This document shows, piece by piece, positions 5,065 to 34,705 of a DNA stretch of 64,000 nucleotides. Each line of letters begins with the position of its first letter. Within the stretch, counting starts at the first letter, position 1. The notes under the pieces are model-generated. The model did no database searches. It was not told the origin of the DNA and worked only from the letters and a program-made list of their open reading frames with translations. Location: assembly GCF_054482525.1 (NCBI RefSeq), contig NZ_CM137006.1. The stretch is one strand, 5' to 3'. A program made the position numbers and the translations under genes.

Positions 5065-5736
5065 TCAGCCACCCATTGAACGAGAAGAGGTGCCGGTTGC
5101 GCTACGCTGCATAGTGCTTTGTTTGGCAACAGATTCACCAAAACCGCCACGGGTAACGGTAGTGGTGGTCGCCGGTTTTGGTGCCATTGCCGTCTTCGGT
5201 ACGGTCATGGTGCGGCCTGGCTGGGCTGCGCCATAGTTTTTACCCGTCGCGTCGGTATATTTACCGTAAGCCGGGCTGGCTGGGTTTTTCGAGGAGAACA
5301 GCGGCTGCTGTGCAAATCCCGCGCCGCCGCCCATCAGACGCCCCATCATGTAACCGGCCATCAGCGGCATCCAGAAACTCCCGCTGGATTGCTGGGCCTG
5401 CGCCTGGTTTTCCGGTGCCATGCCAGCCTGGGCTGGTGCCTGCTGGCACTGACCTTCGCCAAATTCAGCAATACAGTCTTCACGAGTGGCGTATTTCGGC
5501 GCAGTACGTTCGGCTTCTTTCAGCGCATTGTTGTACGCAGTGGTACATTCGGCGCTTTTGCCTGGGTTTGCAGCTGAACAGTCGTCAGCATTTTGATAGA
5601 GAGACACTGTTTCATCACTCTTTTCACAGCCAGCCAGCATAAAAACAGTGGCAACCGCGAGAGCGACTGGTGTCAGATGGCGTGCGCTCCAGTTTTTGCG
5701 GAACGATGCGTGGCGTATGGATTTTGTCCGTTTCAT
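5065..5736 (-). CDS. ygiB: DUF1190 lipoprotein-like protein YgiB
   Basis: ORF track 5065..5769; start trimmed to MKRTKSIRH (223 aa) by recognition; Gly/Ala/Gln-rich. Confidence 0.85.
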
Positions 5737-5883
5737 TTTTGTCTTCCGGGACCAGTGGTAAATACCCATCAGAATAGAGGATGGCTGGTCGAAATTGAAG
5801 CGAGAAGGGGGAAGAATGCGGCAGATAACCCGTATCTTTACGTTGCCTTACGTTCAGACGGGGCCGAAGCCCCGTCGTCGTCA

Positions 5884-7365
5884 TCAGTTACGGAAAGGGT
5901 TATGACCGTTACTGGTGGTAGTGCGTGCGGATGTTTGCTGAACGACGGGTGCCGGGCTATCAGGCGCATAACCATCAGCAATAGCATTCTGTTCCGGCGT
6001 TTGCGGGGCAACGTTTTCCGGATTAGTGGAAACCGGTTTGCTCAGCGCATTGTTCAGTGCCAGCAGATCCTGCTCGTTCAACGTACCCAGAGCTGACTTA
6101 ATATTCAACTGGTTAATCAGGTAGTTATAACGCGCATTTGCCAGCTCTTGCTTAGCGTTGTACAGCGTGGTAGTCGCATCCAACACATCAACAATGGTAC
6201 GCGTACCAACCGAGTAACCCGCTTCCATCGCGTCTAATGAGCTTTGAGCGGAAACTACGGCTTGTTTGTAGGCGTTAATGCTACTGATAGAAGCATTAAT
6301 GTTGTTGAAGGAGGAACGTACGGTTTGTACGACGCTACGATGCGCGCTTTCCAGTTGCTCGCTGGCACCAACAAAGTTGTACTGGGCCTGTTTCACCTGC
6401 GAGTTAACCATTCCGCCCTGATAAATCGGCAGCGAGAAGCTCAGGCCAACTTTGTTCTGGCCCATATTGCTATCGTCATACTGGGTACCAGCGGCACCAC
6501 GGGTTTTCGAACCGCTATAAGAGGTGTCAGAAATCCCGGTAGAAGCCGTTAAATCCAGAGTCGGTAAGTGACCATCCTGCGCCTGGCGAATTTGCTCGCG
6601 CGCCAGGTCCTGGCTCAAGCGCGCCTGTAACAACGACAGGTTGCGTTTTTCGGCTTCTTTCAGCAGCGTGTTAACCGGCTGTGGTTTGTCGGTTTTAAAG
6701 TTTTCGACATTCAGCGCCGCCAGTTCCGGATAGTAGTTACCGGTGATCTGGCGCAGCTGCTCTACCGCGTTATCAAGGTTATTACGTGCGGTCACTTCGT
6801 TCGCCAGCACGGTATCGTACTGTGCGCGGGCGTTCTGCACGTCAGTGATCGCTACCAGGCCCACGTTAAAACGTTGGGTGGTTTGATCTAATTGACGGTA
6901 GATCGCTTCTTTTTGCGCCTGTGTATAGGAAAGAACGTCAATAGCATTCAACACGTTGAAATAAGCGGTCGCGGTGTTGAGGATCAAGGTTTGTTGATCG
7001 GTCTGATACGTGACGTCCTGAATCCCAGCTGCTTTTTCCTGCAGCGTTAACGCACGCCATTTCGACATATCAAAAATGGATTGAGTTAACTGCAGGGACG
7101 CACTGGTCGCGTTAGAGTTGATGCCGTTCGCGTCGCGGTAGCCGTTGCTATAGGTGTAATCTGCACCTAAACCTAGCTGTGGCAGTAATGGACTGCGCGC
7201 TTCATTAATTTTTTCAAAGGCAGCATCACGATCGGCGGCAGACTTACGCAATTCCGGGTTACTAAGGCGTGCTTGCTGATAAACTTGCATCAGGTTCTCG
7301 GCCTGGCTCAACGAACTGAACCCAGAAAGGCTCAGGCCGATAAGAATGGGGAGCAATTTCTTCAT
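5884..7365 (-). CDS. tolC: Outer membrane efflux channel TolC
   Basis: ORF track 5884..7404; start trimmed to MKKLLPILIGLSLSGFSSLSQA signal peptide (493 aa). Confidence 0.95.
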   Translation of the reverse strand: MKKLLPILIGLSLSGFSSLSQAENLMQVYQQARLSNPELRKSAADRDAAFEKINEARSPLLPQLGLGADYTYSNGYRDANGINSNATSASLQLTQSIFDMSKWRALTLQEKAAGIQDVTYQTDQQTLILNTATAYFNVLNAIDVLSYTQAQKEAIYRQLDQTTQRFNVGLVAITDVQNARAQYDTVLANEVTARNNLDNAVEQLRQITGNYYPELAALNVENFKTDKPQPVNTLLKEAEKRNLSLLQARLSQDLAREQIRQAQDGHLPTLDLTASTGISDTSYSGSKTRGAAGTQYDDSNMGQNKVGLSFSLPIYQGGMVNSQVKQAQYNFVGASEQLESAHRSVVQTVRSSFNNINASISSINAYKQAVVSAQSSLDAMEAGYSVGTRTIVDVLDATTTLYNAKQELANARYNYLINQLNIKSALGTLNEQDLLALNNALSKPVSTNPENVAPQTPEQNAIADGYAPDSPAPVVQQTSARTTTSNGHNPFRN

Positions 7366-11976: not shown

Positions 11977-12004
11977 TAATCCTCCCGCCAGAAGAATAAA
12001 AAAT

Positions 12005-12037
12005 AGCCCGGTATACAAGTGTATACCGGGCTTTTTT
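12005..12037. terminator. Bidirectional rho-independent terminator (agcccggtatac..gtataccgggct + T-run)
   Basis: Perfect stem followed by TTTTTT between convergent parE and receptor gene. Confidence 0.75.
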
Positions 12038-12039
12038 GA

Positions 12040-14181
12040 TCAAAATTCCATTTTCACCGTGAATTGCACTTCACGCGGATCGCCAATCTGATTCCCCAGA
12101 TTATTTGTGGCGATGGAAGAGGTGTAATACGTTTTATCAAACAGGTTTTTGACGTTTAATTGCAGTGTGACCGGATACTGCAATTTCATTTTGTATGCAG
12201 CGAAGGCATCGGCAACGAAATAGCCTGGCAGATAATAGTCAGCCCCATTGGTTGCCGAACGACGGCTTACGCCATGTCCACCACCGCCAAACGTCAGTGT
12301 GTTATTGCCAGGCATGTTATGAATGTCATAAGTCAGGAATAGCGAACCGGTATGACGAGGAACATTCGGCAATGGTTTCCCTGCATAATCAGGATCCTCC
12401 AGAACCTTAGCATCGGTATAGCCGTAGCTGGCAATGATATTAATGTTTTCAGTTAATGCTCCCGCAAGGTCGACTTCTACCCCTCTTGAACGAACACGGC
12501 CTGCCGTTTTGGCAATGCTTTCATCACCAATACTTTCGGTATACAACACGTTACGTTTATGGATATCAAACAGCGCAATATCTGCGGTGATACCATCGAA
12601 TAGCTCGAATTTTGCCCCGACTTCGTAAGCATTAGATGATTCCGGTGGAAGATCGCCAATGTAGCTGGCAATTGACGACTGCGGCATAAATGTTTGCGAA
12701 TAATTGGCAAATAAGGATACCGATGGCGTCAGTTTGTAGACTAACCCCAGTTTGGGCGTCCATTGTTCATCGCGGCTGTCAGTATTGACATTAAAAGGAC
12801 GGCCTTTACCCGCATACTGCGTGTAATACTGATAGCGGATCCCGGCGACGGCAATCCAGTTATCGGTCAGATAGAGCGCGTCCTGTGCATACGCTGAGTA
12901 GCTCTCCTGTTTGATCGTCTGATCACTGTCCGACGCCGAAACCGTTGTGCATTTGCTGGTATTGCCATAAACGGGGTTGTAGATATTGAAATCTTTAGCG
13001 TTTTTACAGCGAATCATATCTGTGCGCAGAAGATCATAATATTCATATGACACCCCACCCAGAATCTCATTATAGAACCCAGCAATATCAGCATTCCCTT
13101 GCAGATCCGCACGAGTAGAATGCATACGCTGGGTAGATCCCTGAGTTGCATCAACACGCCGTGTCAGCGTTCCTGTCGTTGCATCATACGCGGTAACGCG
13201 AGCCTGATTGTCGCTGTATTTATCCTGGCTGTAGCTGTAATCAAAGCGCGCTGTCCACTGGCTATTGAGATGATATTCTGCGTTGAGTTGCGCCAGATCG
13301 GACTGACCATCTGTAATATTAAACGGTTCGTCAAAACGTATTTTTCGATCAACGTTTACGGGCTGTTTCGTCGTAAGGTCGAAAATCGTTCCACGATCGA
13401 ACGGAGTTTTATAGTCCCGATGGGAATAGAGCATGGTTACTGTTGCATTATCACCAAACCAGGTGAGTGACGGGGCAATAAATGTACTGCGCTCTTTACC
13501 GAAGTTTCGCCAGTAATCTTCATCCTGCACTTCCCCCGTCAGGCGGTATGCCAGCTGAGTGCCTTCAATGGGACCTGTGATATCAAGTTGCCCAGTGCCT
13601 CCGCCAAAACTGGAGGACGTGGCTGAGACAGAACCATGGAATGTTTTTTCCGGGCGCTTGGTCACGACGTTAATCAATCCACCAGGATCGAGAATGCCAT
13701 ACAGCGTGGAGGCCGGACCTTTTAGCACTTCCACACGTTCTGTGGCGGCGTTGAAACTGCGAGGAAGTACAGTTCGCAGGCCGTTGGTCATGATGGAGCC
13801 ATCCCGGTTTGCGCCAAACCCACGGCGTACAAAAGCATCCTGAGTCCCGCCTAATGTATTGGTCTGTACCACGTTACTGACGTTATAAAGCGCCTCATCC
13901 AGCGTTGTCGCATTCTGGTTTTCCAGAACCTGATCGCTAACCGTATTGACCACCTGCGGGATATCCAGCATCGGCATATCGGTTAATGTCGCCGTAGAGG
14001 TGCTCAGAGGTTGATAACCATCGGTTGCCTCAGTTGCGGTATTTGCATCTGCTGTAACAGTGATTGTTTCGCCATCTTTGGTCGTTACAGAGTCTGTTGC
14101 ATGAATCATCGGTGCCGCAAAAAGCAGTGAAAAGAGCGCCCGACCTTTGAGTCCTGAGAATGAAGGTGTGAACATAGCCAT
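12040..14181 (-). CDS. TonB-dependent outer membrane siderophore receptor (Fit-like, FitA?)
   Basis: 713-aa ORF with signal peptide, plug region and C-terminal terminal-Phe beta-barrel; divergent from ABC importer operon. Confidence 0.85.
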   Translation of the reverse strand: MAMFTPSFSGLKGRALFSLLFAAPMIHATDSVTTKDGETITVTADANTATEATDGYQPLSTSTATLTDMPMLDIPQVVNTVSDQVLENQNATTLDEALYNVSNVVQTNTLGGTQDAFVRRGFGANRDGSIMTNGLRTVLPRSFNAATERVEVLKGPASTLYGILDPGGLINVVTKRPEKTFHGSVSATSSSFGGGTGQLDITGPIEGTQLAYRLTGEVQDEDYWRNFGKERSTFIAPSLTWFGDNATVTMLYSHRDYKTPFDRGTIFDLTTKQPVNVDRKIRFDEPFNITDGQSDLAQLNAEYHLNSQWTARFDYSYSQDKYSDNQARVTAYDATTGTLTRRVDATQGSTQRMHSTRADLQGNADIAGFYNEILGGVSYEYYDLLRTDMIRCKNAKDFNIYNPVYGNTSKCTTVSASDSDQTIKQESYSAYAQDALYLTDNWIAVAGIRYQYYTQYAGKGRPFNVNTDSRDEQWTPKLGLVYKLTPSVSLFANYSQTFMPQSSIASYIGDLPPESSNAYEVGAKFELFDGITADIALFDIHKRNVLYTESIGDESIAKTAGRVRSRGVEVDLAGALTENINIIASYGYTDAKVLEDPDYAGKPLPNVPRHTGSLFLTYDIHNMPGNNTLTFGGGGHGVSRRSATNGADYYLPGYFVADAFAAYKMKLQYPVTLQLNVKNLFDKTYYTSSIATNNLGNQIGDPREVQFTVKMEF

Positions 14182-14278
14182 TTAGTCTGTTATCCCAAAA
14201 ACTCGCGGATTGTCGCGAGTGAAAATTGTTTCTTATTGCTCACTAAGCACTATCCGTTTGTTATTTCACCATCGGATA

Positions 14279-14302
14279 TGTAATTGAGAATCATTCAATC
14301 AT
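14279..14302. promoter_or_regulatory. Candidate Fur box in divergent promoter region
   Basis: taattgagaatcattcaatc resembles GATAATGATAATCATTATC (about 13/19 by eye); AT-rich divergent region. Confidence 0.3.
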
Positions 14303-14554
14303 GCGGTGATGTAGTAGTAAATGAGAAATAACAAAAAATTGCTACATGTGTTTTTATGAGAGGTTAATGCAATTCAATTGATGGTAATTTATTAATATTT
14401 AATGGTTTTATTTTTATCTTTAAAAATATTTCACCTGTTATTTACCTTGTTTTTGTGTGGCTTTTAACTGCTTGACTACTACATTTTGTGGCGTCAAACT
14501 CTCAAAGGAGAATGAGTTTTATTTTTGTTTGTCTTTGATTAAGTTGGCGTACAC

Positions 14555-15364
14555 GTGGCACATAACGCAAAAGGGCAGGGGCTGATCCTCGACAATGTTT
14601 CTGCCGGGTATCACAAGAAAATCATTGTTGATGGTGTTTCTTTCTCCGTTCCCACAGAAAAAATGACCGTTCTGGTTGGGGCAAACGGCTGTGGAAAGTC
14701 GACGTTGCTCAGCACCATTGCACGTATCTTGCAACCCATGGGCGGTTCGATATTGCTGGATGGTAAAGCGATTCACGAGCAACCAACGAAAGCGTTATCC
14801 CGTAGACTTGGGATCTTGCCGCAGTCGCCATTATTGCCGGAGGGCTTAACCGTTTATGAACTGGTGTCGCGTGGGCGTTTTCCCTGGCAGAATTTCATTC
14901 GTCAATGGAGCGACGCCGATGAGCTGGCGGTAGAAGAGGCCCTGAAATTAACGGGTACGCAGGAGTTTGCACATTTACCTGTTGAAAAACTCTCTGGTGG
15001 GCAGCGCCAGCGTTGCTGGATTGCGATGGTGTTGGCGCAAAAGACGCCTTATATCCTGCTGGATGAACCCACAACCTGGCTTGATTTACGTTATCAGGTT
15101 GAAATTCTTGAGTTATTACATGATTTAACACGTCATCACGGGCGTACAGTCGTCGTGGTGTTGCATGATCTGAATTTTGCCGTCAATTATGGCGATACGT
15201 TGATATTTTTACGCCAGGGGAAAGTGGTGCGTGTGTTGAATGAGGGGGAGCATTGCACGCCTGAGCTGGTAAAAGCGGTCTTTGACGTTGATGTTCACGC
15301 ATCAATAAATCCTCTGACGGGAAAGCCGTTCTTCATGCCGTTTCGTGGTGTAGAAAAAGTATGA
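14555..15364 (+). CDS. Iron-siderophore ABC transporter ATP-binding protein (FhuC/FecE-like)
   Basis: 269-aa ORF with Walker A GANGCGKST and LSGGQRQR signature; GTG start forced by in-frame stop at 14540. Confidence 0.85.
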   Translation: MAHNAKGQGLILDNVSAGYHKKIIVDGVSFSVPTEKMTVLVGANGCGKSTLLSTIARILQPMGGSILLDGKAIHEQPTKALSRRLGILPQSPLLPEGLTVYELVSRGRFPWQNFIRQWSDADELAVEEALKLTGTQEFAHLPVEKLSGGQRQRCWIAMVLAQKTPYILLDEPTTWLDLRYQVEILELLHDLTRHHGRTVVVVLHDLNFAVNYGDTLIFLRQGKVVRVLNEGEHCTPELVKAVFDVDVHASINPLTGKPFFMPFRGVEKV

Positions 15365-16344
15365 TGCGCACAGGGCTGGTTACTGTAATTTTCCTCGCCT
15401 TACTGCTGGTGGGATGCGTGGTATATCCAGGGATTGGTGCCCGATTTATTGCACCACAAACGGTATTGCAGGCATTTCTTCATTTTGAACCGCAAAACTT
15501 CGATCACAACGTAATTGTAAGACTCCGTTTGCCGCGTTTAGCGGCAGCATTGCTTACCGGTGCTTCTCTTGGAGTTGCTGGTGCTTTGTTGCAGGCTGTC
15601 ATTCGTAACCCATTGGGGGAGCCACATATTTTAGGCTTAAATGCCGGAGCCGCTCTTGCTGTCGTTGCTGCCAGTGCGCTTGGGCTGGCCTTTCCGGTTG
15701 GACGCCCACTGCTGGCATCTACGGGCGGCGCGTTATTGTTCCTGTTGATATTGCTGCTTTCCTCCGCAGGGCGTTCAGGGTTAACGCCAATGAAAGTTAC
15801 TTTATGCGGCGTGGCGCTATCGGCGTTCGTGTCCTCAATAACGGCTGCAATCCTGATTCTTGACGAACAAACACTGCTGGCGATGCGGACATGGCTAGCA
15901 GGTGATTTAGCGGGGCAGGATTGGGCGACGCTGGGTACGTCCGCCTGGTTTTCTCTGGGGGGATTTGTGTTAGCCCTTTACCTTGCACCCTCCCTTAACA
16001 TGTTGGCACTGGGCGATCGCATGGCGCAGGGGCTGGGCGTCTCTGTACTCCGCACGCGAACATTCACCCTGCTTGCGATCGCGTTGCTCTGTGGCGCAGC
16101 CGTATCGATTGCTGGCCCCATTGGTTTTGTCGGCCTGCTAGTACCGCAGATTGTCCGGCGTCTGGTATCAGCGGATCTGCGCGTTCTGCTCCCTCTTTCA
16201 GCTTGTGTCGGCGCACTTTTGTTATTACTGGCAGATATTATTGCCCGTACGCTTTTCACGCCCCATGAATTAGCGACCGGTGTCATGACGGCGTTAGTTG
16301 GTGCGCCTGTTTTTGTCATTATGGCGACGAGGATGTTCAAATGA
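15361..16344 (+). CDS. FecCD-family ABC permease
   Basis: 327-aa hydrophobic ORF, 4-nt overlap with upstream ATPase gene. Confidence 0.85.
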   Translation: MMRTGLVTVIFLALLLVGCVVYPGIGARFIAPQTVLQAFLHFEPQNFDHNVIVRLRLPRLAAALLTGASLGVAGALLQAVIRNPLGEPHILGLNAGAALAVVAASALGLAFPVGRPLLASTGGALLFLLILLLSSAGRSGLTPMKVTLCGVALSAFVSSITAAILILDEQTLLAMRTWLAGDLAGQDWATLGTSAWFSLGGFVLALYLAPSLNMLALGDRMAQGLGVSVLRTRTFTLLAIALLCGAAVSIAGPIGFVGLLVPQIVRRLVSADLRVLLPLSACVGALLLLLADIIARTLFTPHELATGVMTALVGAPVFVIMATRMFK

Positions 16345-17390
16345 GTCGGATAATGAACGTCGGGCTACGCCCACTACGTGTTGGTAAGTTTTCGACACTG
16401 GTACGCCCTAAAAATCTGCTGTTGCTTGGTGGGCTGTTTCTGTTTGCGGTTGGAATACTGATATTCGGTCTGATGCAGGGTTCTTTCTCTGTTCCGGCAT
16501 CGGAAGTAGGACGAGCGTTGTTTGCTCCAGAAAACGTAAGCACAGACGCACGTTATATTGTGCAGGATATTCGCTTGCCGAGAGTCATCATGGCATTGCT
16601 ATGCGGGGCCATGTTAGGTATGGCAGGGGCCGCAATGCAATCCATTGCACGTAACGGCCTTGCCGATCCTGGGTTAATCGGCGTCAAAGAAGGATGTAGC
16701 GTGGCTGTGCTGTGGCTGATTTTCCAGTTTCCAATGCTGGGAGTGTTCTGGCGTCCAGTGGCTGGTCTTGCTGGTGGCCTGTTGGTGGCTTTAATCGTGA
16801 TTTTTTGTGCGCGCGATATTTCCCGCCCGCGATTTGTTCTGATTGGTATTGGTGTTTCCTGGTTTTTCGCCGCCGGTATCGGTGTATTTATGACCACTGC
16901 AGATGTTCGAGATGTACAAACTGCATTGATGTGGTTATCGGGAAGCCTGCATGCAGCTAACTGGATGTTAGTCGGTATTTCAGCCTGTTGGATGTTGCCA
17001 GCCGCTCTTTTATTGCTGTTCACCGCCAGGACGGCGGATATCGCTCTGCTTGGTCATCAGGTTGCAACCGGGTTAGGGGTGAATAGTTCTCGTCTGGCGT
17101 TGTTACGTGTCGCCGCACCCATAATCCTGACAGCCGTCTGCGTTTCGTGTGTTGGTAACATCGGTTTTGTCGGATTGATAGCACCCCATATATCACGTTT
17201 TATGCTACGTGGCGGGCAGACGACATTACTGCTGGGGAGCGCGGTATCGGGGGCGTTGTTAGTTATTCTGGCGGATAGCATTGGTCGTTTGGCTTTTTTG
17301 CCTTTGCAACTGCCTGCCGGAATCATTATCTCACTGATTGGTGGACCATTTTTTTTGCTACTGCTCTGGCAGCGCAGGAACAGTTTTTAA
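16341..17390 (+). CDS. FecCD-family ABC permease (second)
   Basis: 349-aa hydrophobic ORF, overlaps previous permease stop. Confidence 0.85.
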   Translation: MSRIMNVGLRPLRVGKFSTLVRPKNLLLLGGLFLFAVGILIFGLMQGSFSVPASEVGRALFAPENVSTDARYIVQDIRLPRVIMALLCGAMLGMAGAAMQSIARNGLADPGLIGVKEGCSVAVLWLIFQFPMLGVFWRPVAGLAGGLLVALIVIFCARDISRPRFVLIGIGVSWFFAAGIGVFMTTADVRDVQTALMWLSGSLHAANWMLVGISACWMLPAALLLLFTARTADIALLGHQVATGLGVNSSRLALLRVAAPIILTAVCVSCVGNIGFVGLIAPHISRFMLRGGQTTLLLGSAVSGALLVILADSIGRLAFLPLQLPAGIIISLIGGPFFLLLLWQRRNSF

Positions 17391-17400
17391 CGGGAGTTAT

Positions 17401-18348
17401 ATGCGTTTATTTTTTTCTCTGCTGATACTGTTGTCATTTTTTTCCCGTGCAACAGAACCTGTTCAGGTATTTACTGATGATTTAGGGCGCAAAGTCACTG
17501 TTCCTGCTCATCCAAAGAGAATTGTCTCTTTACACGATCTTGATATCACTATTCCTCTGATTGAGCTCGGTGTACCTCCTGTCGCCAGCCACGGGCGAAC
17601 TCGGCCTGACGGTAGCCATTTCATTCGATCTGGCGCGTTATTGACAGGTGTCGACTTTGATAATTCATCGATCGCCTTTATTGGTACCGCTGATATTGAT
17701 ATTGAAGCGATTGTGGCGGCAAAGCCTGACTTGATCATCACAGAACCGACCCGTAATACGCCCATTGAACAACTTGAAAAAATTGCGCCCACGGTGAGCA
17801 TTGATCATCTCAAAGGGGGCGCGCCAGAAATCTATCGCAAGCTGGCAGAACTTACAGGAACGCAGTCGCAGCTGGCGATACTTGAACGCCGCTATCAGGC
17901 ACAAATCAATGCGCTGAAGGCGACGCTGGACAGCCAAAAAATAACGGTATCGGTGATTCAGGCAAACCAGGGAAAAATTAATGTGATGCATAGCTATCAT
18001 TCGCTGGGGCGGGTATTACGCGATGCTGGTTTTCGTTTTCCGCCGCTGATTGAGAGCATTCCTGAAGGTGGGCGAATGGATGTGAGCGCGGAGCGTTTAC
18101 CTGAACTGGATGCCGATTTTGTTTTTGCAACCTGGCGCGGTGACACCGGTGGTAAACCTCAGGATGAGCTGGCAGCAATGGAAAAAGTCATGCCGGGATG
18201 GTGTCAGTTTCTGACTGCCTGTCGTTCCGGGCGTTATGTGCTGATTTCTCGTGAAGAGGCAATTTCTAACTCCTTTGCATCACTGGGGCTGATGGCTGCG
18301 CAGATACAATCACAAATTGCAGGGCGACCTCTACCGGAGGCTAAATGA
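17401..18348 (+). CDS. Periplasmic siderophore-binding protein (cluster A SBP)
   Basis: ORF track 17338..18348; start trimmed to MRLFFSLLILLSFFSRA signal peptide preceded by GGGAG. Confidence 0.8.
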   Translation: MRLFFSLLILLSFFSRATEPVQVFTDDLGRKVTVPAHPKRIVSLHDLDITIPLIELGVPPVASHGRTRPDGSHFIRSGALLTGVDFDNSSIAFIGTADIDIEAIVAAKPDLIITEPTRNTPIEQLEKIAPTVSIDHLKGGAPEIYRKLAELTGTQSQLAILERRYQAQINALKATLDSQKITVSVIQANQGKINVMHSYHSLGRVLRDAGFRFPPLIESIPEGGRMDVSAERLPELDADFVFATWRGDTGGKPQDELAAMEKVMPGWCQFLTACRSGRYVLISREEAISNSFASLGLMAAQIQSQIAGRPLPEAK

Positions 18349-19232
18349 TCCAGAAAGATAAAGCGCGGGTTGATATTTTTGGTGAGCGTTTTCGCACTCG
18401 CGCGAGTCAGTTAACGCCTGGGTTAAGAGCTGTCGCCAGCTACATTAATGAGCATCGTGAAGTGGTACTCGAGCAAACGGCGATGGAAATTGCGGCCACG
18501 TTGAACACTTCCGATGCCACAGTTATCAGGGCTATACAGGCCCTGGGGTTTGCCGGGCTGCGTGATCTGAAACGCACTCTGGAACAGTGGCTTGGTCCAG
18601 CCCTTAGTTCCAGCGAAAAGATGTCTACGACGGTGAGTAACTTGACGAGCGATGTTAACACCGCAATCGACTTTGTTCTTGAAGGGCATTTGTATACCTG
18701 TAATGTCCTGTCAGAGCCTGAAAACCGCCACGCGCTTGCGCAAGCTGTAGCGTTGTTGGTGCAGGCACGGCAAGTCGCAATTTTTGGCATTGGCGCTTCG
18801 GGTATTCTGGCGGACTATACCGCACGACTATTCAACCGCATAGGTTTGCCTGCCACGGCACTAAACCGTACGGGGATTGGCCTTGCCGAGCAACTGATCG
18901 CGCTTCAACGTGGCGATGTTCTGATCATGATGGCGCAAAAATCTGCGCACCGGGAAGGGCTGACAACGCTTCGTGAGGCGAGGCGGCTGGGGATCCCTGT
19001 TATTTTGCTGACAAACGCGCTGGATTCGCGTTTTAGCAAAGACGCCAGTATCGTGATTCATGTTCCGCGCGGGGATGAAAAAGGGAAAACGCCGCTACAT
19101 GGTACGGTATTGTTGTGTCTGGAAATGATTGTCTGGTCGGTAGCTTCCGCAGTGCCGCAGCGTGCGGTTAAAACCATTAAGCGAATTAACGATTTCCATC
19201 GAGGACTGAAAACGGGAAGAAAGAATGGCTAA
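18345..19232 (+). CDS. RpiR/MurR-family transcriptional regulator (HTH + SIS domain)
   Basis: 295-aa ORF; N-terminal HTH, C-terminal SIS-like phosphosugar-binding region; start overlaps binding-protein stop (ATGA). Confidence 0.75.
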   Translation: MIQKDKARVDIFGERFRTRASQLTPGLRAVASYINEHREVVLEQTAMEIAATLNTSDATVIRAIQALGFAGLRDLKRTLEQWLGPALSSSEKMSTTVSNLTSDVNTAIDFVLEGHLYTCNVLSEPENRHALAQAVALLVQARQVAIFGIGASGILADYTARLFNRIGLPATALNRTGIGLAEQLIALQRGDVLIMMAQKSAHREGLTTLREARRLGIPVILLTNALDSRFSKDASIVIHVPRGDEKGKTPLHGTVLLCLEMIVWSVASAVPQRAVKTIKRINDFHRGLKTGRKNG

Positions 19233-19276
19233 TCTGGGCTGAGACCGGTAGCAACACCGGCCTCTTTTCAGGAATG

Positions 19277-19591
19277 TTAAATCCCCGGTTGCAGGATGCG
19301 GATATTCATCTCCAGCACATCGCCTTTTACGGCCTCGCTGTACGCTTTCATGTGCGGGGTCTGCAAGTGCGCTTCAAGATGCGCGATGCTTTCCCACTGC
19401 TCAATCATCACGATAGAATCCGGTGCCATAGACTGGAAACTCACGCCAGCAGCGCAATCCACCATTGGCGCATAGCCGTGGCAACCTTCTTCTTTCAGTA
19501 CGGTTGGAACGATTTTAGCAAACTGATCCAACACTGCCTGACGGTGATGTTGACCAGGACGAGTACGGATTTCTGCGATTACTGTAATCAT
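19277..19591 (-). CDS. ygiN: Quinol monooxygenase YgiN
   Basis: 104-aa ORF recognised. Confidence 0.9.
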   Translation of the reverse strand: MITVIAEIRTRPGQHHRQAVLDQFAKIVPTVLKEEGCHGYAPMVDCAAGVSFQSMAPDSIVMIEQWESIAHLEAHLQTPHMKAYSEAVKGDVLEMNIRILQPGI

Positions 19592-19621
19592 GGTTAACTC
19601 CTTCTAAAGCCAGAGCTCTAG

Positions 19622-20203
19622 TTAACCAAAAATTTCCACAAGATGCTTGCGATATTCTTCAGTATAGCGGGGAACATCAGGCATTTTTATCACGTCATTA
19701 GCGATAAATGTCGGCAGCGGTTCCATGCCAAGGAATTGGTTTGCTTTATGGAACGGCAGGTACACACCGTCAACACCAACGCCGTGGAAGAACTGATCTT
19801 TTTCGGTGAAGGCTTCCATTGGTGCGTTCCAGGTCAGAGAAAGCATATATTTTTTGCCCTGTACCAGGCCGCCGGAGCCGTATTTTTTCGACGGATCTTT
19901 GCGGGTACGACCATCGCTGGCATACAGCGTCCCGTGACCTTCGGTGAATACATCATCAATGTATTTTTTCACTGTCCACGGCGCGCCCATCCACCAGCCT
20001 GGCATCTGCCAGATCACCGCATCAGCCCAGAGAAAGTTTTGTACTTCCGCTTTGACATCGTAGTCGCTGTCGGCGCGAACGATGCGGACATCATGCCCGA
20101 GGTCGCGCAGTGTGCCATCCGCGACTTCGGTCAGGGTGTCGTTCAGTTGACCATTGGAGTGGGCGAATTTTTTCGCGCCGTTGATAATCAGGATGTTGCT
20201 CAT
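19622..20203 (-). CDS. mdaB: NADPH:quinone oxidoreductase MdaB
   Basis: 193-aa ORF recognised. Confidence 0.9.
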   Translation of the reverse strand: MSNILIINGAKKFAHSNGQLNDTLTEVADGTLRDLGHDVRIVRADSDYDVKAEVQNFLWADAVIWQMPGWWMGAPWTVKKYIDDVFTEGHGTLYASDGRTRKDPSKKYGSGGLVQGKKYMLSLTWNAPMEAFTEKDQFFHGVGVDGVYLPFHKANQFLGMEPLPTFIANDVIKMPDVPRYTEEYRKHLVEIFG

Positions 20204-20312
20204 TTTTTAACCTCAAGGTGAGACGTTTGCCGACTATAGTACGTCACAGAGCGGTACGGTGAAATTAGCAAAATGTGCAAAGTCTTTTGCGAATTTAGCA
20301 AAAGTCTTACCC

Positions 20313-21662
20313 TTACCAGCTTATCTTCGCCTCAAATCCACCTTGTTCCGCATTCCCAAATTCAACATTCATGTCATGCAGCTTGGCGATTCGCTGGACA
20401 ATCGATAGCCCAAGTCCACTGCCGGTAGCGGTTTGTCCGGGTGGGCGATAGAAGCGTTCGCCAATTCTCGCCAGTGCCTCTGGTGTCACACCGGGGCCGT
20501 TATCCCTCACGATGAAATTATCGGCATTCAGCGTGACGTCTACCACGCTACCTTGTGAACTGTAACGCACGGCGTTATCCAGCAAATTTCGCACCAACAA
20601 ACTTAGCAATAGCGGTTGTCCGGTGCGTTTGATGCCGTTGGCATTGAGTGTCAGTCGCACGTCAATGTTCGCCTGCTGCGCCGTGTGGTAAATATCCATC
20701 ACCGACGATTGCAGGAGATCTTCAAGCGGGATCTCCGCGACGTCCTGAAGGTTATCCAGTGAGTCCAGCCGCGATAGCGTGAGCAGTTGATCAACCAGAC
20801 GAGTAGCGCGATCGATCCCGGAATGTAATTGAAGCAGCGCTTTTTTCCGCGCCTGCGGATCATCGTCAGAGAGCTGCGCAACTTCGGTTTGCACTTTCAG
20901 CGCCGTTAACGGGCTACGAAGTTCGTGAGCTGCGTCGGAGGTAAAGCGTCGTTCACGAACCATCATCGCATGTGTGCGGGCGAACAGTTGATTCAACGAC
21001 TCAACCAGTGGACGCACTTCGCTGGGTACGCCCGTCGCGTTTAGTGGTTTTTCCGAGTCAGGGTCACGCATACGTAGTGCCAGCGCCAGTTTGTTCAGCG
21101 GCGCGAGTTCACGACCCAGTAGTACCATCATGATGATTAACATAATCGGCAGTGCGACAAGCCACGGGAGCAATTGTCCGGCAACAATCGCCAGCGCCAT
21201 GTCTTCACGGTATTCCCATTCCTGACCCACAACGATGCGATATTTGCCATCAGGTGAGGTCATCCAGACAAAACGCCAGGGATCGTCTTCACCGACCAGT
21301 TGCCCGTCAGCAAAACCTTCCCGCTGATAGCTATAGGGAATATCTTCTCCGTTATCGCCATCGTTAAGGACCATTCTGCCGTCGTGAGTAAAGATGGCAA
21401 AGGTCAGCGCATCGTCATCAACATGACCGTGTTTTAATTTATTTGGCGTCTGTGCCATGCGATCTGCCGCGTTGATTTCGTTGAGATCGAGCGTACTTAA
21501 CCGTTTGGCAAACAGCATCAGTTGGGTGTCGAACAACTCATCGACGTTATCCGTTGTTTGTTTCCAGGCGACAAAGCTGGAAAGCAGCCAGGTCACCGAG
21601 GCCAGAATTAAAAAGATTAGCGTCAGCCTGACTCGCAGACTAAGACGTTGGGTAAATTTCAT
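20313..21662 (-). CDS. qseC: Sensor histidine kinase QseC
   Basis: 449-aa ORF, two TM segments, H-box AAHELRSPL. Confidence 0.9.
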
Positions 21663-22318
21663 TTCTCACCTAATGTGTAGCCAATACCATGAACGGTACG
21701 AATAAAATCACTGCCGAGTTTGCGTCGCAGATGATGCACATGCACTTCAACGGCATTACTGGTGACCTCTTCGTCCCAGGTATACAGTTTCTCTTCAATC
21801 AGTTTGCGCGGCAGTACCCGACCAGCGTTACGCATCAGTAATTCCAGCAGGGCAAATTCTTTTGGTTTCAGCGTTAAGGGTTCGCCAGTCAGTGTGGCGA
21901 TACGTTTGCCGGGGTCGAGCATGACGTTGCCGTGGCGCAGCTCGTTGCTGGCCTGGCCGTTGGTTCGGCGCATCAGAGCTTCCAGCCTGGCGGCGACTTC
22001 TATCAACGCAAAAGGTTTACACAGATAATCGTCAGCTCCCAGGCGCAGCCCTTCTACACGTTCCGCCAGCGCATCGCGCGCGGTCAGGATCAATACCGGC
22101 TCACGCTGACCTTTTTCTCGCCATTCGCGCAAAATATCGCGACCATCCATGCCTGGTAAGGTTAAATCCAGGATCACCGCATCATAAGGCGCGCTATATA
22201 GCGCCTCTTTTCCCTGACGACCTTGTGTAAACCAGTCGACGCTAAAACCCATTTTACTAAGGCCCGTTTTGATGCCGTCGCCAATCAGCATGTCATCTTC
22301 TATCAGTAAAATTCGCAT
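21659..22318 (-). CDS. qseB: Response regulator QseB (OmpR family)
   Basis: 219-aa ORF; overlaps qseC start. Confidence 0.9.
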
Positions 22319-22469
22319 TTTTTCATCCCTGCGATAACCGTATTTGCTGCCAGTAAACCGTGTTGTAACGCGCTCTGTACAGCATTAAATTTTATTTTTT
22401 TCCCTTAAGAAGTTGTTAAGGACTATCTTGTTAAATGCTCGGAAACAGACATTAAAGGGAGTAATAAAC

Positions 22470-22862
22470 ATGAAAAAATTCGCAGCAGTAATCGCAGTAA
22501 TGGCCCTGTGCAGTGCACCGGTGATGGCAGCAGAGCAGGGAGGTTTTTCTGGCCCATCGGCAACGCAAAGTCAGGCCGGAGGATTCCAGGGGCCGAACGG
22601 CAGCGTAACGACCGTAGAAAGCGCAAAATCCCTGCGTGACGACACCTGGGTAACCCTGCGCGGCAATATCGTTGAACGCATCTCTGACGATCTCTACGTG
22701 TTCAAAGATGCCAGCGGTACTATCAATGTGGATATCGATCACAAACGCTGGAACGGCGTGACGGTGACGCCGAAAGATACGGTTGAGATTCAGGGTGAAG
22801 TCGATAAAGACTGGAACTCTGTTGAAATTGACGTCAAACAGATCCGCAAAGTAAATCCGTAA
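22470..22862 (+). CDS. ygiW: Periplasmic BOF/OB-fold protein YgiW (VisP)
   Basis: ORF track 22413..22862; start trimmed to MKKFAAVIAVMALCSAPVMA (130 aa). Confidence 0.85.
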   Translation: MKKFAAVIAVMALCSAPVMAAEQGGFSGPSATQSQAGGFQGPNGSVTTVESAKSLRDDTWVTLRGNIVERISDDLYVFKDASGTINVDIDHKRWNGVTVTPKDTVEIQGEVDKDWNSVEIDVKQIRKVNP

Positions 22863-22914
22863 TTGTTACCGCTCCCGGGACGCGTTCCCGGGAATAATTT
22901 CGCAGGGAGGCAAA

Positions 22915-23397
22915 ATGACAAACCTGACACTGGATGTAAATATTATCGATTTCCCATCAATCCCTGTGGCGATGTTGCCGCACCGTTGTAGCCCTGAGTT
23001 GCTCAACTACAGCGTGGCGAAATTTATCATGTGGCGTAAAGAGACGGGGCTTTCTCCTGTTAACCAAAGCCAGACTTTTGGCGTCGCCTGGGACGACCCT
23101 GCCACCACCGCACCAGAAGCGTTTCGCTTTGATATCTGCGGCAGCGTTAGCGAACCGATCCCCGATAATCGTTATGGCGTAAGTAATGGTGAACTTACCG
23201 GTGGACGTTATGCTGTGGCCCGCCATGTTGGCGAGCTGGACGATATTTCACACACGATATGGGGCATCATTCGCCACTGGCTTCCGGCAAGCGGCGAAAA
23301 AATGCGCAAAGCCCCGATCCTGTTTCACTACACCAATCTTGCCGAAGGGATGACAGAGCAGCGACTGGAAACGGATGTTTATGTACCGTTAGCGTGA
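22915..23397 (+). CDS. ygiV: GyrI-like / AraC effector-domain protein YgiV
   Basis: 160-aa ORF recognised. Confidence 0.8.
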   Translation: MTNLTLDVNIIDFPSIPVAMLPHRCSPELLNYSVAKFIMWRKETGLSPVNQSQTFGVAWDDPATTAPEAFRFDICGSVSEPIPDNRYGVSNGELTGGRYAVARHVGELDDISHTIWGIIRHWLPASGEKMRKAPILFHYTNLAEGMTEQRLETDVYVPLA

Positions 23398-23505
23398 TGG
23401 GGAATCTTTACCGGAGTGTGAGCCAAATCACTCGCGATAAGTTTGAGCGAACAATGCCACAGGCGTATTGTTGTTGGGCTTATAATTTCTCCGGTAAGGA
23501 ATACC

Positions 23506-25113
23506 ATGTATACGCGAAATTTATTATGGCTGGTCAGCCTGGTAAGTGCGGCTCCTCTCTACGCTGCTGACGTTCCCGCCAACACACCGCTCGCCCCGCA
23601 ACAAGTCTTTCGTTACAACAATCATAGCGACCCAGGCACGCTCGACCCGCAAAAGGTAGAGGAGAATACTGCCGCGCAGATTGTGCTGGATCTGTTTGAA
23701 GGTCTGGTATGGATGGACGGTGAAGGCCAGGTGCAGCCCGCTCAGGCTGAACGCTGGGAGATACTGGACGGCGGCAAGCGCTATATTTTCCATCTGCGTA
23801 GCGGTTTGCAGTGGTCAGACGGTCAGCCTCTGACGGCAGAGGATTTTGTCCTCGGCTGGCAGCGCGCGGTTGACCCGAAAACGGCAAGCCCTTTTGCTGG
23901 CTATCTGGCACAGGCGCACATTAACAATGCCGCGGCTATTGTTGCGGGTAAAGCAGATGTTACATCGCTGGGTGTCAAAGCGACGGATGATCGTACTCTT
24001 GAAGTTACGCTTGGGCAGCCAGTTCCTTGGTTCACGACGATGCTCACCTGGCCGACGCTGTTCCCGGTTCCTCATCATGTCATCGCTAAACATGGCGATA
24101 GCTGGAGTAAGCCAGAGAACATGGTTTACAACGGTGCCTTTGTGCTTGATCAGTGGGTAGTTAACGAAAAGATTACTGCACGCAAAAATCCAAAGTACCG
24201 CGATGCGCAACATACAGTATTGCAACAGGTTGAGTATCTGGCGCTGGATAATTCGGTCACCGGCTATAACCGCTATCGCGCGGGAGAGGTCGATCTCACC
24301 TGGGTTCCGGCGCAGCAAATTCCCGCCATTGAATAATCACTGCCTGGCGAGCTACGAATTATCCCGCGTCTGAACAGCGAATATTACAACTTTAACCTTG
24401 AGAAACCGCCATTTAACGATGTGCGGGTGCGTCGGGCGCTATATCTTACGGTTGATCGACAGCTTATTGCGCAAAAGGTACTGGGGTTGAGAACGCCCGC
24501 AACCACGCTGACGCCGCCAGAGGTAAAAGGCTTTAGCGCGACGACGTTCGATGAACTGCAAAAGCCAATGAGTGAGCGTGTCGCGATGGCAAAAGCCTTG
24601 CTCAAACAGGCGGGATACGACGCCTCTCATCCGCTACGCTTTGAGCTGTTCTACAACAAGTACGATCTGCATGAAAAGACCGCGATAGTGTTGTCTTCCG
24701 AATGGAAAAAATGGCTGGGTGCACAGGTGACGCTGCGCACAATGGAGTGGAAAACCTATCTTGATGCCCGACGAGCCGGTGATTTCATGCTGTCTCGGCA
24801 GTCGTGGGATGCGACGTACAATGATGCTTCCAGCTTCCTGAACACGCTCAAAAGCGATAGTGAAGAAAACGTCGGTCACTGGAAAAATGCGCAGTATGAC
24901 GCCTTACTAAACCAGGCCACGCAGATCACTGATGCGACAAAGCGTAATGCGTTGTATCAGCAGGCAGAAGTGATCATCAACCAGCAGGCACCGCTGATTC
25001 CTATCTACTATCAGCCGTTAATCAAACTACTTAAACCCTACGTTGGCGGTTTTCCGCTGCATAATCCCCAGGATTATGTCTACAGCAAAGAGTTGTATAT
25101 CAAGACACATTGA
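23506..25113 (+). pseudogene. ygiS: ygiS (OppA-like periplasmic binding protein) interrupted by in-frame TAA at 24334-24336
   Basis: ORFs 23443..24336 and 24421..25113 are in the same frame, separated only by one stop codon; combined length 535 codons. Confidence 0.8.
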
Positions 25114-25250
25114 TGTCTTTATCGCCGCCGGAGCACGTCCGGCGGCGCTATTCACGCTGATCTCCTGTGACTCGACGCGGCAGATAATGTAGTATCTCCG
25201 GCAATATTGCCCCTTTGAAGGCTGGCGAATAAGTTGAGGAATCAGAATTA

Positions 25251-27509
25251 ATGAGCGATATGGCAGAGCGCCTTGCGCTACATGAATTTACGGAAAACGC
25301 CTACTTAAACTACTCCATGTACGTGATCATGGACCGTGCGTTGCCGTTTATTGGCGATGGTCTGAAACCTGTTCAGCGCCGCATTGTGTATGCGATGTCT
25401 GAGCTGGGCCTGAATGCCAGCGCCAAATTTAAAAAATCGGCCCGTACCGTCGGTGACGTACTGGGTAAATACCATCCGCACGGCGATATCGCCTGTTATG
25501 AAGCGATGGTCCTGATGGCGCAGCCGTTCTCTTACCGTTATCCGCTGGTTGATGGTCAGGGGAACTGGGGTGCGCCGGACGATCCGAAATCGTTCGCGGC
25601 AATGCGTTACACCGAATCCCGGTTGTCGAAATATTCCGAGCTGCTATTGAGCGAGCTGGGGCAGGGGACGGCTGACTGGGTGCCAAACTTCGACGGCACT
25701 TTGCAGGAGCCGAAAATGCTGCCTGCCCGTCTGCCAAACATTTTGCTTAACGGCACCACCGGTATTGCCGTCGGCATGGCGACCGATATTCCACCGCATA
25801 ACCTGCGTGAAGTGGCTCAGGCGGCAATTGCCTTAATCGACCAGCCGAAAACCACGCTCGATCAGCTGCTGGATATCGTGCAGGGGCCGGATTATCCGAC
25901 TGAAGCGGAAATTATCACTTCGCGCGCCGAGATTCGTAAAATCTACGAGAACGGACGTGGTTCAGTGCGTATGCGCGCGGTTTGGAAGAAAGAAGATGGC
26001 GCGGTGGTTATCAGCGCATTGCCGCATCAGGTTTCAGGTGCGCGTGTACTGGAGCAAATTGCTGCGCAAATGCGCAACAAAAAGCTGCCGATGGTTGACG
26101 ATCTGCGCGATGAATCTGACCACGAGAACCCGACCCGTCTGGTGATTGTGCCGCGTTCCAACCGCGTGGATATGGATCAGGTGATGAACCACCTCTTCGC
26201 TACCACCGATCTGGAAAAGAGCTATCGCATTAACCTCAATATGATCGGTCTGGATGGTCGTCCGGCGGTGAAAAACCTGCTGGAAATCCTCTCCGAATGG
26301 CTGGTGTTCCGCCGCGATACCGTGCGCCGCCGACTGAACTATCGTCTGGAGAAAGTCCTCAAGCGCCTGCATATCCTCGAAGGTTTGCTGGTGGCGTTTC
26401 TCAATATCGACGAAGTGATTGAGATCATTCGTAATGAAGATGAACCGAAACCGGCGCTGATGTCGCGGTTTGGCCTTACGGAAACCCAGGCGGAAGCGAT
26501 CCTCGAACTGAAACTGCGTCATCTTGCCAAACTGGAAGAGATGAAGATTCGCGGTGAGCAGAGTGAGCTGGAAAAAGAGCGCGACCAGTTGCAGGGCATT
26601 TTGGCTTCCGAGCGTAAAATGAATAACCTGCTGAAGAAAGAACTGCAGGCAGACGCGCAAGCCTACGGTGACGAACGTCGTTCGCCGTTGCAGGAACGCG
26701 AAGAAGCGAAAGCGATGAGCGAGCACGACATGCTGCCGTCTGAACCTGTCACCATTGTGCTGTCGCAGATGGGCTGGGTACGCAGCGCTAAAGGCCATGA
26801 TATCGACGCGCCGGGCCTGAATTATAAAGCGGGCGATAGCTTCAAAGCGGCGGTGAAAGGTAAGAGCAACCAACCGGTAGTGTTTGTTGATTCCACCGGT
26901 CGTAGCTATGCCATCGACCCGATTACGCTGCCGTCGGCGCGTGGTCAGGGCGAACCGCTCACCGGCAAATTAACGTTGCCGCCTGGAGCGACCGTTGACC
27001 ATATGCTGATGGAAAGCGACGATCAGAAACTGCTGATGGCTTCCGATGCGGGTTACGGTTTCGTCTGCACCTTTAACGATCTGGTGGCGCGTAACCGTGC
27101 AGGTAAGGCTTTGATCACCTTACCGGAAAATGCCCATGTTATGCCGCCGGTGGTGATTGAGGATGCTTCCGATATGCTGCTGGCAATCACTCAGGCAGGC
27201 CGTATGTTGATGTTCCCGGTAAGCGATCTGCCGCAGTTGTCGAAGGGCAAAGGCAATAAGATTATCAACATTCCGTCGGCAGAAGCCGCGCGTGGCGAGG
27301 ATGGTCTGGCGCAACTGTACGTTCTACCACCGCAAAGCACGCTGACCATTCATGTTGGGAAACGCAAAATTAAACTGCGTCCGGAAGAGCTACAGAAAGT
27401 CACTGGCGAACGTGGACGCCGCGGTACGTTGATGCGCGGTTTGCAGCGTATCGATCGTGTTGAGATCGACTCTCCTCGCCGTGCCAGCAGCGGTGATAGC
27501 GAAGAGTAA
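25251..27509 (+). CDS. parC: DNA topoisomerase IV subunit A
   Basis: 752-aa ORF recognised. Confidence 0.95.
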
Positions 27510-27550
27510 TATGCCGGGGAGGGCGCTGTTTCCTCCCGCTTGCAAGGAAC

Positions 27551-27580
27551 GCCGGATGAAACGTTAAGTCGTCATCCGGC
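27551..27580. repeat. REP-like palindrome (gccggatga...tcatccggc)
   Basis: Inverted repeat with GCCGGATG / CATCCGGC arms downstream of parC. Confidence 0.55.
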
Positions 27581-27742
27581 AGCGTATTCAACCCCCGGAA
27601 ACGATAAAAATTCCCTTGAAACCGTTGTTTATTCATGCGTTGCGATTAACAATACGCTTTTCCAGAGAGCTGCTTTTAACAATGCCCTAACCTGATTTCA
27701 GGTGACGTACAATGCCAGTCTCTCAGACCTTCAGAGGGTGTT

Positions 27743-28480
27743 ATGCTATATATCTTTCGTCTTATTATTACCGTGATTTACAGCATTTTAGTCTGTGTAT
27801 TCGGCTCCATTTACTGCCTTTTCAGCCCGCGTAATCCGAAACATGTGGCCACCTTTGGGCATATGTTTGGCCGTCTTGCGCCGCTGTTCGGCCTGAAAGT
27901 GGAGTGCCGCAAACCTGCAGACGCTGAAAGTTACGGCAATGCTATCTATATCGCTAACCACCAGAACAACTATGACATGGTGACAGCATCGAACATTGTG
28001 CAACCGCCGACGGTAACGGTTGGTAAAAAGAGCTTGCTGTGGATCCCCTTCTTCGGGCAGTTGTACTGGTTAACCGGTAACTTATTGATCGACAGAAACA
28101 ATCGCACTAAAGCTCACGGCACTATTGCGGAAGTCGTGAATCACTTCAAAAAACGCCGTATTTCCATCTGGATGTTCCCGGAAGGAACCCGCAGCCGTGG
28201 TCGCGGCCTGCTACCGTTCAAGACCGGGGCATTTCACGCGGCAATTGCGGCGGGCGTCCCGATTATTCCCGTGTGCGTCTCTACAACTTCGAATAAGATT
28301 AATCTTAATCGGCTACACAACGGTCTGGTGATTGTCGAAATGCTGCCGCCAATTGACGTCAGTCAGTATGGCAAAGATCAGGTTCGCGAGTTGGCTGCCC
28401 ATTGTCGTTCGATAATGGAACAAAAAATCGCTGAGCTCGATAAAGAAGTCGCAGAGCGCGAAGCCGCCGGAAAAGTTTAA
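27743..28480 (+). CDS. plsC: 1-acyl-sn-glycerol-3-phosphate acyltransferase
   Basis: 245-aa ORF with HQNNYD acyltransferase motif. Confidence 0.95.
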   Translation: MLYIFRLIITVIYSILVCVFGSIYCLFSPRNPKHVATFGHMFGRLAPLFGLKVECRKPADAESYGNAIYIANHQNNYDMVTASNIVQPPTVTVGKKSLLWIPFFGQLYWLTGNLLIDRNNRTKAHGTIAEVVNHFKKRRISIWMFPEGTRSRGRGLLPFKTGAFHAAIAAGVPIIPVCVSTTSNKINLNRLHNGLVIVEMLPPIDVSQYGKDQVRELAAHCRSIMEQKIAELDKEVAEREAAGKV

Positions 28481-28554
28481 GTCGGCAATCTGTATTTTTG
28501 CGGGGAACACTTTCCTGCACGGTATTACTTTAGCCAGTTTTACATGGAGCAAAT

Positions 28555-29967
28555 ATGTCAATCAGTCGGCGTCAGTTCATTCAGGCATCGGGGATTGCAC
28601 TTTGTGCAGGCGCTGTTCCCCTGAAGGCCAGCGCAGCCGGGCAACAGCAACCGCTACCCGTTCCGCCGCTACTTGAATCTCGCCGTGGGCAACCGCTGTT
28701 TATGACTGTACAACGTGCGCACTGGTCATTTACGCCAGGGACACGCGCGTCGGTCTGGGGAATCAATGGTCGTTACCTGGGGCCGACTATCCGCGTCTGG
28801 AAGGGCGACGATGTTAAGCTTATTTACAGCAACCGCCTGACAGAAAATGTCTCAATGACGGTGGCCGGGCTACAGGTACCAGGCCCGCTGATGGGCGGTC
28901 CGGCACGGATGATGTCGCCAAACGCTGACTGGGCACCCGTACTGCCCATTCGCCAGAACGCAGCTACTCTGTGGTATCACGCCAATACTCCCAACCGCAC
29001 GGCTCAGCAGGTCTATAACGGCCTTGCCGGAATGTGGCTGGTGGAAGATGAAGTCAGCAAGTCGCTGCCTATCCCCAACCATTATGGTGTGGATGATTTT
29101 CCGGTCATTATCCAGGATAAACGGCTGGATAACTTTGGTACGCCAGAATACAACGAACCGGGAAGCGGCGGCTTTGTTGGTGATACGCTGCTGGTTAACG
29201 GTGTACAAAGCCCGTACGTTGAAGTCTCGCGTGGCTGGGTGCGCTTGCGACTGCTGAACGCGTCGAACTCTCGTCGCTATCAACTACAGATGAACGATGG
29301 TCGCCCGTTACATGTGATTTCTGGCGATCAGGGATTCCTGCCTGCTCCTGTATCGGTGAAGCAACTTTCGCTGGCACCGGGCGAGCGCCGCGAGATTCTG
29401 GTGGATATGAGCAACGGCGATGAAGTGTCGATCACCTGTGGCGAAGCGGCGAGCATTGTTGATCGTATTCGTGGCTTCTTTGAGCCATCCAGTATTCTGG
29501 TTTCTACCCTGGTGCTAACGCTGCGCCCAACCGGCCTTCTGCCGCTGGTCACAGACAGTCTTCCGATGCGCTTGCTGCCAACTGAAATCATGGCTGGTTC
29601 GCCAATTCGCAGTCGCGATATCAGTCTGGGTGATGACCCGGGTATTAATGGACAGCTGTGGGACGTCAACCGTATTGATGTCACCGCGCAGCAAGGAACG
29701 TGGGAACGCTGGACGGTACGCGCGGACGAGCCGCAAGCGTTCCATATTGAAGGCGTAATGTTCCAGATCCGTAGCGTGAATGGCGCGATGCCGTTCCCGG
29801 AAGACAGAGGCTGGAAAGATACCGTTTGGGTTGACGGACAAGTGGAGCTGCTTGTTTATTTCGGTCAGCCTTCCTGGGCGCACTTCCCGTTCTACTTCAA
29901 CAGTCAGACGCTGGAAATGGCGGACCGTGGCTCGATTGGGCAACTGTTGGTCAATCCGGTACCGTAA
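28555..29967 (+). CDS. ftsP: Cell division protein FtsP (SufI), multicopper-oxidase fold, Tat substrate
   Basis: 470-aa ORF with twin-arginine signal SRRQFIQASG. Confidence 0.95.
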   Translation: MSISRRQFIQASGIALCAGAVPLKASAAGQQQPLPVPPLLESRRGQPLFMTVQRAHWSFTPGTRASVWGINGRYLGPTIRVWKGDDVKLIYSNRLTENVSMTVAGLQVPGPLMGGPARMMSPNADWAPVLPIRQNAATLWYHANTPNRTAQQVYNGLAGMWLVEDEVSKSLPIPNHYGVDDFPVIIQDKRLDNFGTPEYNEPGSGGFVGDTLLVNGVQSPYVEVSRGWVRLRLLNASNSRRYQLQMNDGRPLHVISGDQGFLPAPVSVKQLSLAPGERREILVDMSNGDEVSITCGEAASIVDRIRGFFEPSSILVSTLVLTLRPTGLLPLVTDSLPMRLLPTEIMAGSPIRSRDISLGDDPGINGQLWDVNRIDVTAQQGTWERWTVRADEPQAFHIEGVMFQIRSVNGAMPFPEDRGWKDTVWVDGQVELLVYFGQPSWAHFPFYFNSQTLEMADRGSIGQLLVNPVP

Positions 29968-30077
29968 TCTTCATACTCGCCCGAGGAGGGCGAGTATGGA
30001 ATACCTTTCGATTTCTCTTTCGTTCCGGCTTATAATCCCCGGCCTTTGATTATTTTTTTATCATTTCTGGAAGCAAA

Positions 30078-34601: not shown

Positions 34602-34705
34602 ACGTTCCTCCTTTATATGAACTCACCGGAGCAGGCTCCGGTGAGGTGTTGTGAACTTAAGTCTGGACGAAATGCCCGAAAACGAAAGTTTGAGGCGTAA
34701 AAAGC

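Follow-up and report, generated by a model that had tools for sequence, protein, structure and literature searches.

Absence of the mqsR-mqsA module at the ygiV-ygiS junction of an Escherichia coli chromosomal segment, a probably ancestral arrangement

The stretch of DNA analysed here, referred to as the window, is a 64-kb segment of an E. coli chromosome. Strain GF131, with 99.9% identity over the region, served to check the gene names. Three genes lie on the minus strand, mdaB (19622-20203), qseC (20313-21662) and qseB (21659-22318). They are followed on the plus strand by ygiW (22471-22862), an upstream neighbour which encodes an OB-fold stress protein according to the ORF list and the GF131 annotation, and by ygiV (22915-23397). 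The latter is intact and encodes a GyrI-like domain protein of 160 aa, 100% identical to YgiV of GF131; the K-12 gene is of equal length. Its TGA stop codon occupies 23395-23397, and the ATG of ygiS is found at 23506, which confirms the spacing of about 108 bp given for this interval (23398-23505) in the initial annotation. A long RNA hairpin is predicted on the plus strand in this spacer (23405-23500). The ygiS gene (23506-25113, plus strand), coding for a periplasmic substrate-binding protein, is present at full length. It is a pseudogene owing to an in-frame premature stop, TAA, at codon 277 (24334-24336, plus strand). The downstream neighbour parC (25251-27509, plus strand) fixes the synteny, and plsC (27743-28480, plus strand) lies beyond it.

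K-12 carries the mqsR-mqsA toxin-antitoxin pair at this point. The MqsR toxin is a protein of about 98 aa. The MqsA antitoxin, encoded downstream of mqsR, has about 131 aa and consists of a Zn-binding N-terminal domain and an HTH-XRE domain. The order annotated in MG1655 is ygiV (b3023), mqsR (b3022), mqsA (b3021), ygiS (b3020) and parC, and the same order has been tabulated for K-12 with spacers of 204 bp and 132 bp (PMC5120126). The placement of the pair between ygiV and ygiS, which the initial annotation had given for K-12, is thus correct. The K-12 mqsR-mqsA locus (also ygiU-ygiT, b3022-b3021) and the window share qseCB, ygiW and ygiV on one side and ygiS, parC and plsC on the other. When both are aligned, they differ by a clean indel: a block of 927 bp in K-12 is replaced by the five bases GGGAA (23400-23404) in the window, with flanks that agree at every base. 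The common left flank, which includes the final bases of ygiV, ends in GCGTGATG and the common right flank begins with TCTTTACCGGAGTG; over the 101 bp preceding the ygiS ATG (23405-23505), identity to K-12 is 100%. Within the K-12 block lie the PmqsRA operator with two MqsA palindromes (ACCT-N4-AGGT, 32 bp apart), mqsR, mqsA and the mqsA terminator. The GC content of the block is 41.1%, compared to 52% for ygiV and ygiS. The difference at the ygiV-ygiS junction is not a chance matter but a presence/absence difference between homologous loci.

No trace of the module was detected in the window. Searches of its 64 kb by tblastn revealed no homologue of MqsR (K-12 protein as query, best E = 0.63) or of MqsA (best E = 0.56). 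Likewise, blastn with the K-12 927-bp insert gave only chance matches of at most 25 bp in the window, none of them at the locus. The paired MqsA operator palindromes are absent from the window, where a single ACCT-N4-AGGT occurs at 17457, far from the locus, with 0.4 such sites expected by chance. In addition, the 108-bp spacer is too short for an ORF of the MqsR family. The earlier statement that there is no room for mqsR-mqsA at this junction is therefore well founded.

To place the junction in the genus, outgroup loci were retrieved by a YgiV scan with one genome per species. Five loci of Escherichia that do not belong to the common E. coli lineages were obtained: E. albertii, E. whittamii, Escherichia sp. 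E1V33, Escherichia sp. MOD1-EC7003 and the divergent 'E. coli' SCPM-O-B-8794. Each of the five has ygiS, or what remains of it, immediately after ygiV, and neither MqsR nor MqsA was found in these loci. The spacer measures about 110 bp in the three that have a full-length ygiS. A junction of the form TGA-NN-GGGA(A)-TCTTT(T)ACCGGAGTG, near-identical to that of the window, is common to E. albertii, E. whittamii, SCPM-O-B-8794 and MOD1-EC7003, so that GGGA(A) is kept at this position in other Escherichia species. The same empty-site allele, with a 108-bp spacer, the same junction and no toxin-antitoxin genes, is found in Nissle 1917, O157:H7, GF131, E. albertii and E. whittamii; SCPM-O-B-8794 likewise agrees with the window in the length and sequence of the spacer. 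Within the spacer, the outgroup species show a few point substitutions relative to the window. In E. coli, the stop at ygiS codon 277 sets the window and GF131 apart from the other empty-site alleles; Nissle 1917, for example, combines the 108-bp spacer with an intact ygiS.

The distribution of the module within the species was estimated from 5,426 complete E. coli genomes, plasmids included. DNA of mqsRA is present in 2,298-2,299 of them (about 42%), with a median of one place per genome. The 2,298 copies are all at least 99% identical to that of K-12 and all chromosomal. An uninterrupted junction, defined as window positions 23300-23500 in one piece, was found in 3,123 of the 5,426 genomes, including Nissle 1917 and O157:H7. 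Carriers and uninterrupted junctions together account for 5,421 of the 5,423 genomes with any match, which means that the two sets are essentially exclusive and exhaustive. In E. coli, genomes with an empty site are in the majority.

From these comparisons we consider it very probable that the window holds the ancestral, never-occupied ygiV-ygiS junction and that K-12 represents the derived state, produced by insertion of mqsRA. Since the junction bases are the same in the outgroup species and a deletion would not rebuild them, the junction is best read as ancestral and free of any excision scar; mqsRA would be missing between ygiV and ygiS here because the block was never inserted in this lineage. 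The opposite course, in which an ancestor had mqsRA at this point and a deletion or excision left the short spacer, was implied by the initial annotation. It agrees with the presence of the module at exactly this position in K-12 and in 42% of complete E. coli genomes, and also with the fact that toxin-antitoxin modules can be lost. A true secondary loss is indeed seen in strain H9Ecoli (2248-3032 of its locus): an IS1 adjoins the last 32 bp of mqsA, and qseBC, ygiW, ygiV and mqsR are gone, most of the module having disappeared through an IS1-associated deletion. At the junction studied here, in contrast, the comparison with K-12 for an excision scar, suggested earlier as a check, showed a clean indel, at which neither a remnant of the 927-bp block nor an IS or repeat is present. 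The junction, GGGAA included, is that of Escherichia which lack mqsRA, and a deletion would have had to restore the ancestral bases exactly. Moreover, the flanking haplotype of the window lies about 2.4% away from the uniform haplotype linked to mqsRA. Loss is therefore a very unlikely origin for this arrangement. In principle, an mqsRA-carrying lineage could regain the ancestral allele without a scar by homologous recombination with an empty-site donor.

It was also considered that mqsRA or a close homologue of it might reside elsewhere on the chromosome of this strain or on a plasmid. The genome is readable here for 64 kb only, and genes of the MqsR family do occur on plasmids of other Proteobacteria: 73 plasmids from a variety of Proteobacteria, of which 30 are conjugative, carry toxins of this family, which is mobile on that account. 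Against such a relocation stand the lack of a homologue in the window and the finding that no plasmid carries mqsRA in any of the 5,426 complete E. coli genomes. Carriers (2,298-2,299) also agree in number with interrupted junctions (about 2,300). Because the two sets sum to nearly all genomes, those with an empty site have neither mqsRA nor a recognisably diverged copy elsewhere. No diverged copy at another place was recovered in the 5,426 genomes by word-11 blastn, which added just the 32-bp remnant of H9Ecoli, raising the count to 2,299; these searches were made at DNA level and are sensitive to identities of about 65-70% or more, a very distant or a plasmid-borne MqsR-family pair of this strain being outside their reach. 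Finally, the nearest complete genome, GF131, has an empty junction. A copy elsewhere in this strain is accordingly most improbable, and by analogy with the complete genomes the absence of mqsRA may be extended beyond the 64-kb window, which would make the strain almost certainly devoid of the module in its whole genome. That the module is missing through mis-assembly or collapse can be dismissed, since 3,123 genomes, finished independently of one another, and five other Escherichia assemblies show the same contiguous junction.

Returning to the insertion that we propose for K-12, carriers of mqsRA show an almost uniform flanking haplotype, with 97.5-97.8% identity to the window, whereas empty-site genomes range from 96.9 to 100%; the window itself is 97.6% identical to the mqsRA-linked haplotype. 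This uniformity fits a single insertion on one haplotype. Together with the low GC content of the block and the identity of at least 99% among its copies, it points to a foreign origin and a single acquisition. No target-site duplication or terminal inverted repeats were found around the K-12 insert. The history is then probably as follows. The mqsR-mqsA pair would have been acquired horizontally as a 927-bp block of low GC content. It would have been inserted once, just after the ygiV stop and just before the conserved hairpin which precedes ygiS, on one E. coli haplotype that is now represented in about 42% of sequenced E. coli, K-12 among them. As with Nissle 1917, O157:H7 and the sister species of Escherichia, the block would never have reached the lineage of the window, leaving the strain without the MqsR mRNA interferase and without the MqsA repressor. 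In addition, its ygiS is inactivated by a private nonsense mutation.

The spacer was further examined for structure and signals. In the predicted hairpin, an arm at 23405-23424 pairs with 23477-23484 and 23489-23500, and the 3′ arm covers the Shine-Dalgarno sequence of ygiS (UAAGGA). The minimum free energy is -40.8 kcal/mol (z = -3.2), and 1 of 200 shuffled sequences folds as well. A 13-nt inverted repeat is seen in K-12. The sequence is identical in K-12, where the mqsRA block stands directly 5′ of the hairpin, and conserved in E. albertii and E. whittamii. Since compensatory changes were observed at none of the 39 predicted pairs across 5 Escherichia sequences, the hairpin stays a prediction and its function unproven; going by the folding model, it may control translation of ygiS. 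No Rfam family matched the spacer. A scan of 22300-23700 for promoters and terminators gave nothing above shuffle expectation, a terminator-like site at 23454-23466 being weak. As there is no convincing intrinsic terminator between ygiV and ygiS, the two genes may be co-transcribed in the ancestral arrangement. In K-12, the inserted module would bring its own promoter and terminator between them.

The ygiS gene shows repeated decay. Codon 277, where the window has TAA instead of AAA, encodes Lys (AAA or AAG) in K-12 and other Escherichia, E. whittamii and E. albertii among them; outside this codon, identity of the gene to its K-12 counterpart is 98.9%. In GF131, ygiS is also marked 'internal stop' in the PGAP annotation. 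The exact 61-mer around the K277 stop is present in 1 of 4,054 ygiS-bearing complete E. coli genomes, which is that of GF131, a strain from chicken meat in Switzerland. A third allele of the locus was found in 1,357 of the 5,426 genomes: ygiS is replaced from its 23rd base on by a filler of 237 bp with 60% GC, followed by parC. The filler occupies 4614-4850 of the locus of E. coli STEC313 and corresponds to window positions 23528-25071. Positions 18-237 of it align with 93.6% identity to the 3′ end of a group II intron annotated in strain Z1323CEC0003, and the 237 bp gave no Rfam match. Genomes with this allele keep the ancestral GGGAA junction and are without mqsRA. Rough frequencies, obtained by subtraction, are 33% for the ancestral allele, 42% for the mqsRA insertion and 25% for the ygiS::intron relic. 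Independent decay has taken place in MOD1-EC7003 and E1V33, where only protein fragments remain between ygiV and parC (5553-5922 and 3713-4140 of their loci, respectively). The gene seems to be lost easily across the genus. On backgrounds without mqsRA it has been inactivated repeatedly, by a nonsense mutation here, by the intron relic in about 25% of E. coli genomes and by separate internal deletions in two other Escherichia lineages; by counts, carriers of mqsRA almost always keep it. The ygiS gene has been reported as a target of MqsR. Control of ygiS by MqsR and outright loss of ygiS might be alternative ways to limit YgiS-dependent deoxycholate uptake, with the hairpin burying the ribosome-binding site maybe as a third, ancestral layer, although we hold this scheme to be unlikely.

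Our observations agree with what has been described for such modules. According to reviews, chromosomal type II toxin-antitoxin modules, mqsRA included, are accessory and unevenly distributed among E. coli phylogroups (PMC7167474; PMC5120126), and MqsRA is missing from the B2 strain NRG857c (PMC7232551). The ygiV-ygiS locus resembles the published type II islets in its presence/absence polymorphism and in the type of element concerned, a small, low-GC, two-gene module in an intergenic position with otherwise conserved synteny. It departs from them in nothing substantive and is one instance of the kind. In two studies to which these reviews refer, Fiedoruk and colleagues in 2015 and Ramisetty and Santhosh in 2016 are said to have described chromosomal type II modules as accessory islets of horizontal origin. 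Real as the finding is, it is an ordinary one, because the uneven spread of mqsRA as an accessory pair is already in the literature, and its importance is small beyond bookkeeping. It nevertheless recalls that the ancestral map differs from that of K-12: mqsRA, which occurs in single copy and in fewer than half of the sequenced E. coli, is in all probability a late acquisition. It follows from this frequency that the roles proposed for MqsRA in biofilm formation, bile tolerance or the general stress response cannot be species-wide; the present strain lives without mqsRA, as do Nissle 1917 and O157:H7. The proposed physiological roles of MqsRA, including its link with ygiS and deoxycholate, are themselves contested (PMC6918082). 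For annotation, we suggest that the locus be recorded as 'mqsRA never acquired' and not as 'deleted', and that ygiS be flagged as a pseudogene.

A few features around the locus may be mentioned. The window also lacks ygiZ, which in K-12 lies between qseC and mdaB; the mdaB-qseC gap is here just 109 bp (20204-20312). The gene is likewise absent in GF131 and, judged by spacing, apparently in E. albertii and MOD1-EC7003. In STEC313 it is annotated, and in E. whittamii the spacing points to its presence. With ygiZ, a second small polymorphism of presence and absence lies a few kb from the mqsRA site. Upstream of ygiN, at about 12000-19300, there is a siderophore-uptake cluster with a TonB-dependent receptor, an ABC ATPase, two permeases, a substrate-binding protein and a MurR/RpiR regulator (annotation taken from the 99.9% identical region of GF131). 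It looks like an accessory island, since ygiN adjoins parE in strain H9Ecoli. None of the complete genomes is identical to the window; GF131, the closest of them, is 99.9% identical to it over 12000-29968 (about 18 kb), beyond which the relation becomes mosaic. A recombination boundary is suggested at about 29969-30027 because identity to GF131 drops there from 99.9% to 97.8%. Between ftsP and ygiQ (about 29969-30027), GF131 has an extra island of 7.7 kb which is missing from the window and encodes a TRAP transporter, an Ldh-family oxidoreductase, a zinc alcohol dehydrogenase, a mannitol dehydrogenase-family protein and a GntR regulator. The sole Rfam match in the window at the gathering threshold is the ES173 sRNA at 34640-34703 on the minus strand (99 bits, E = 2e-19).
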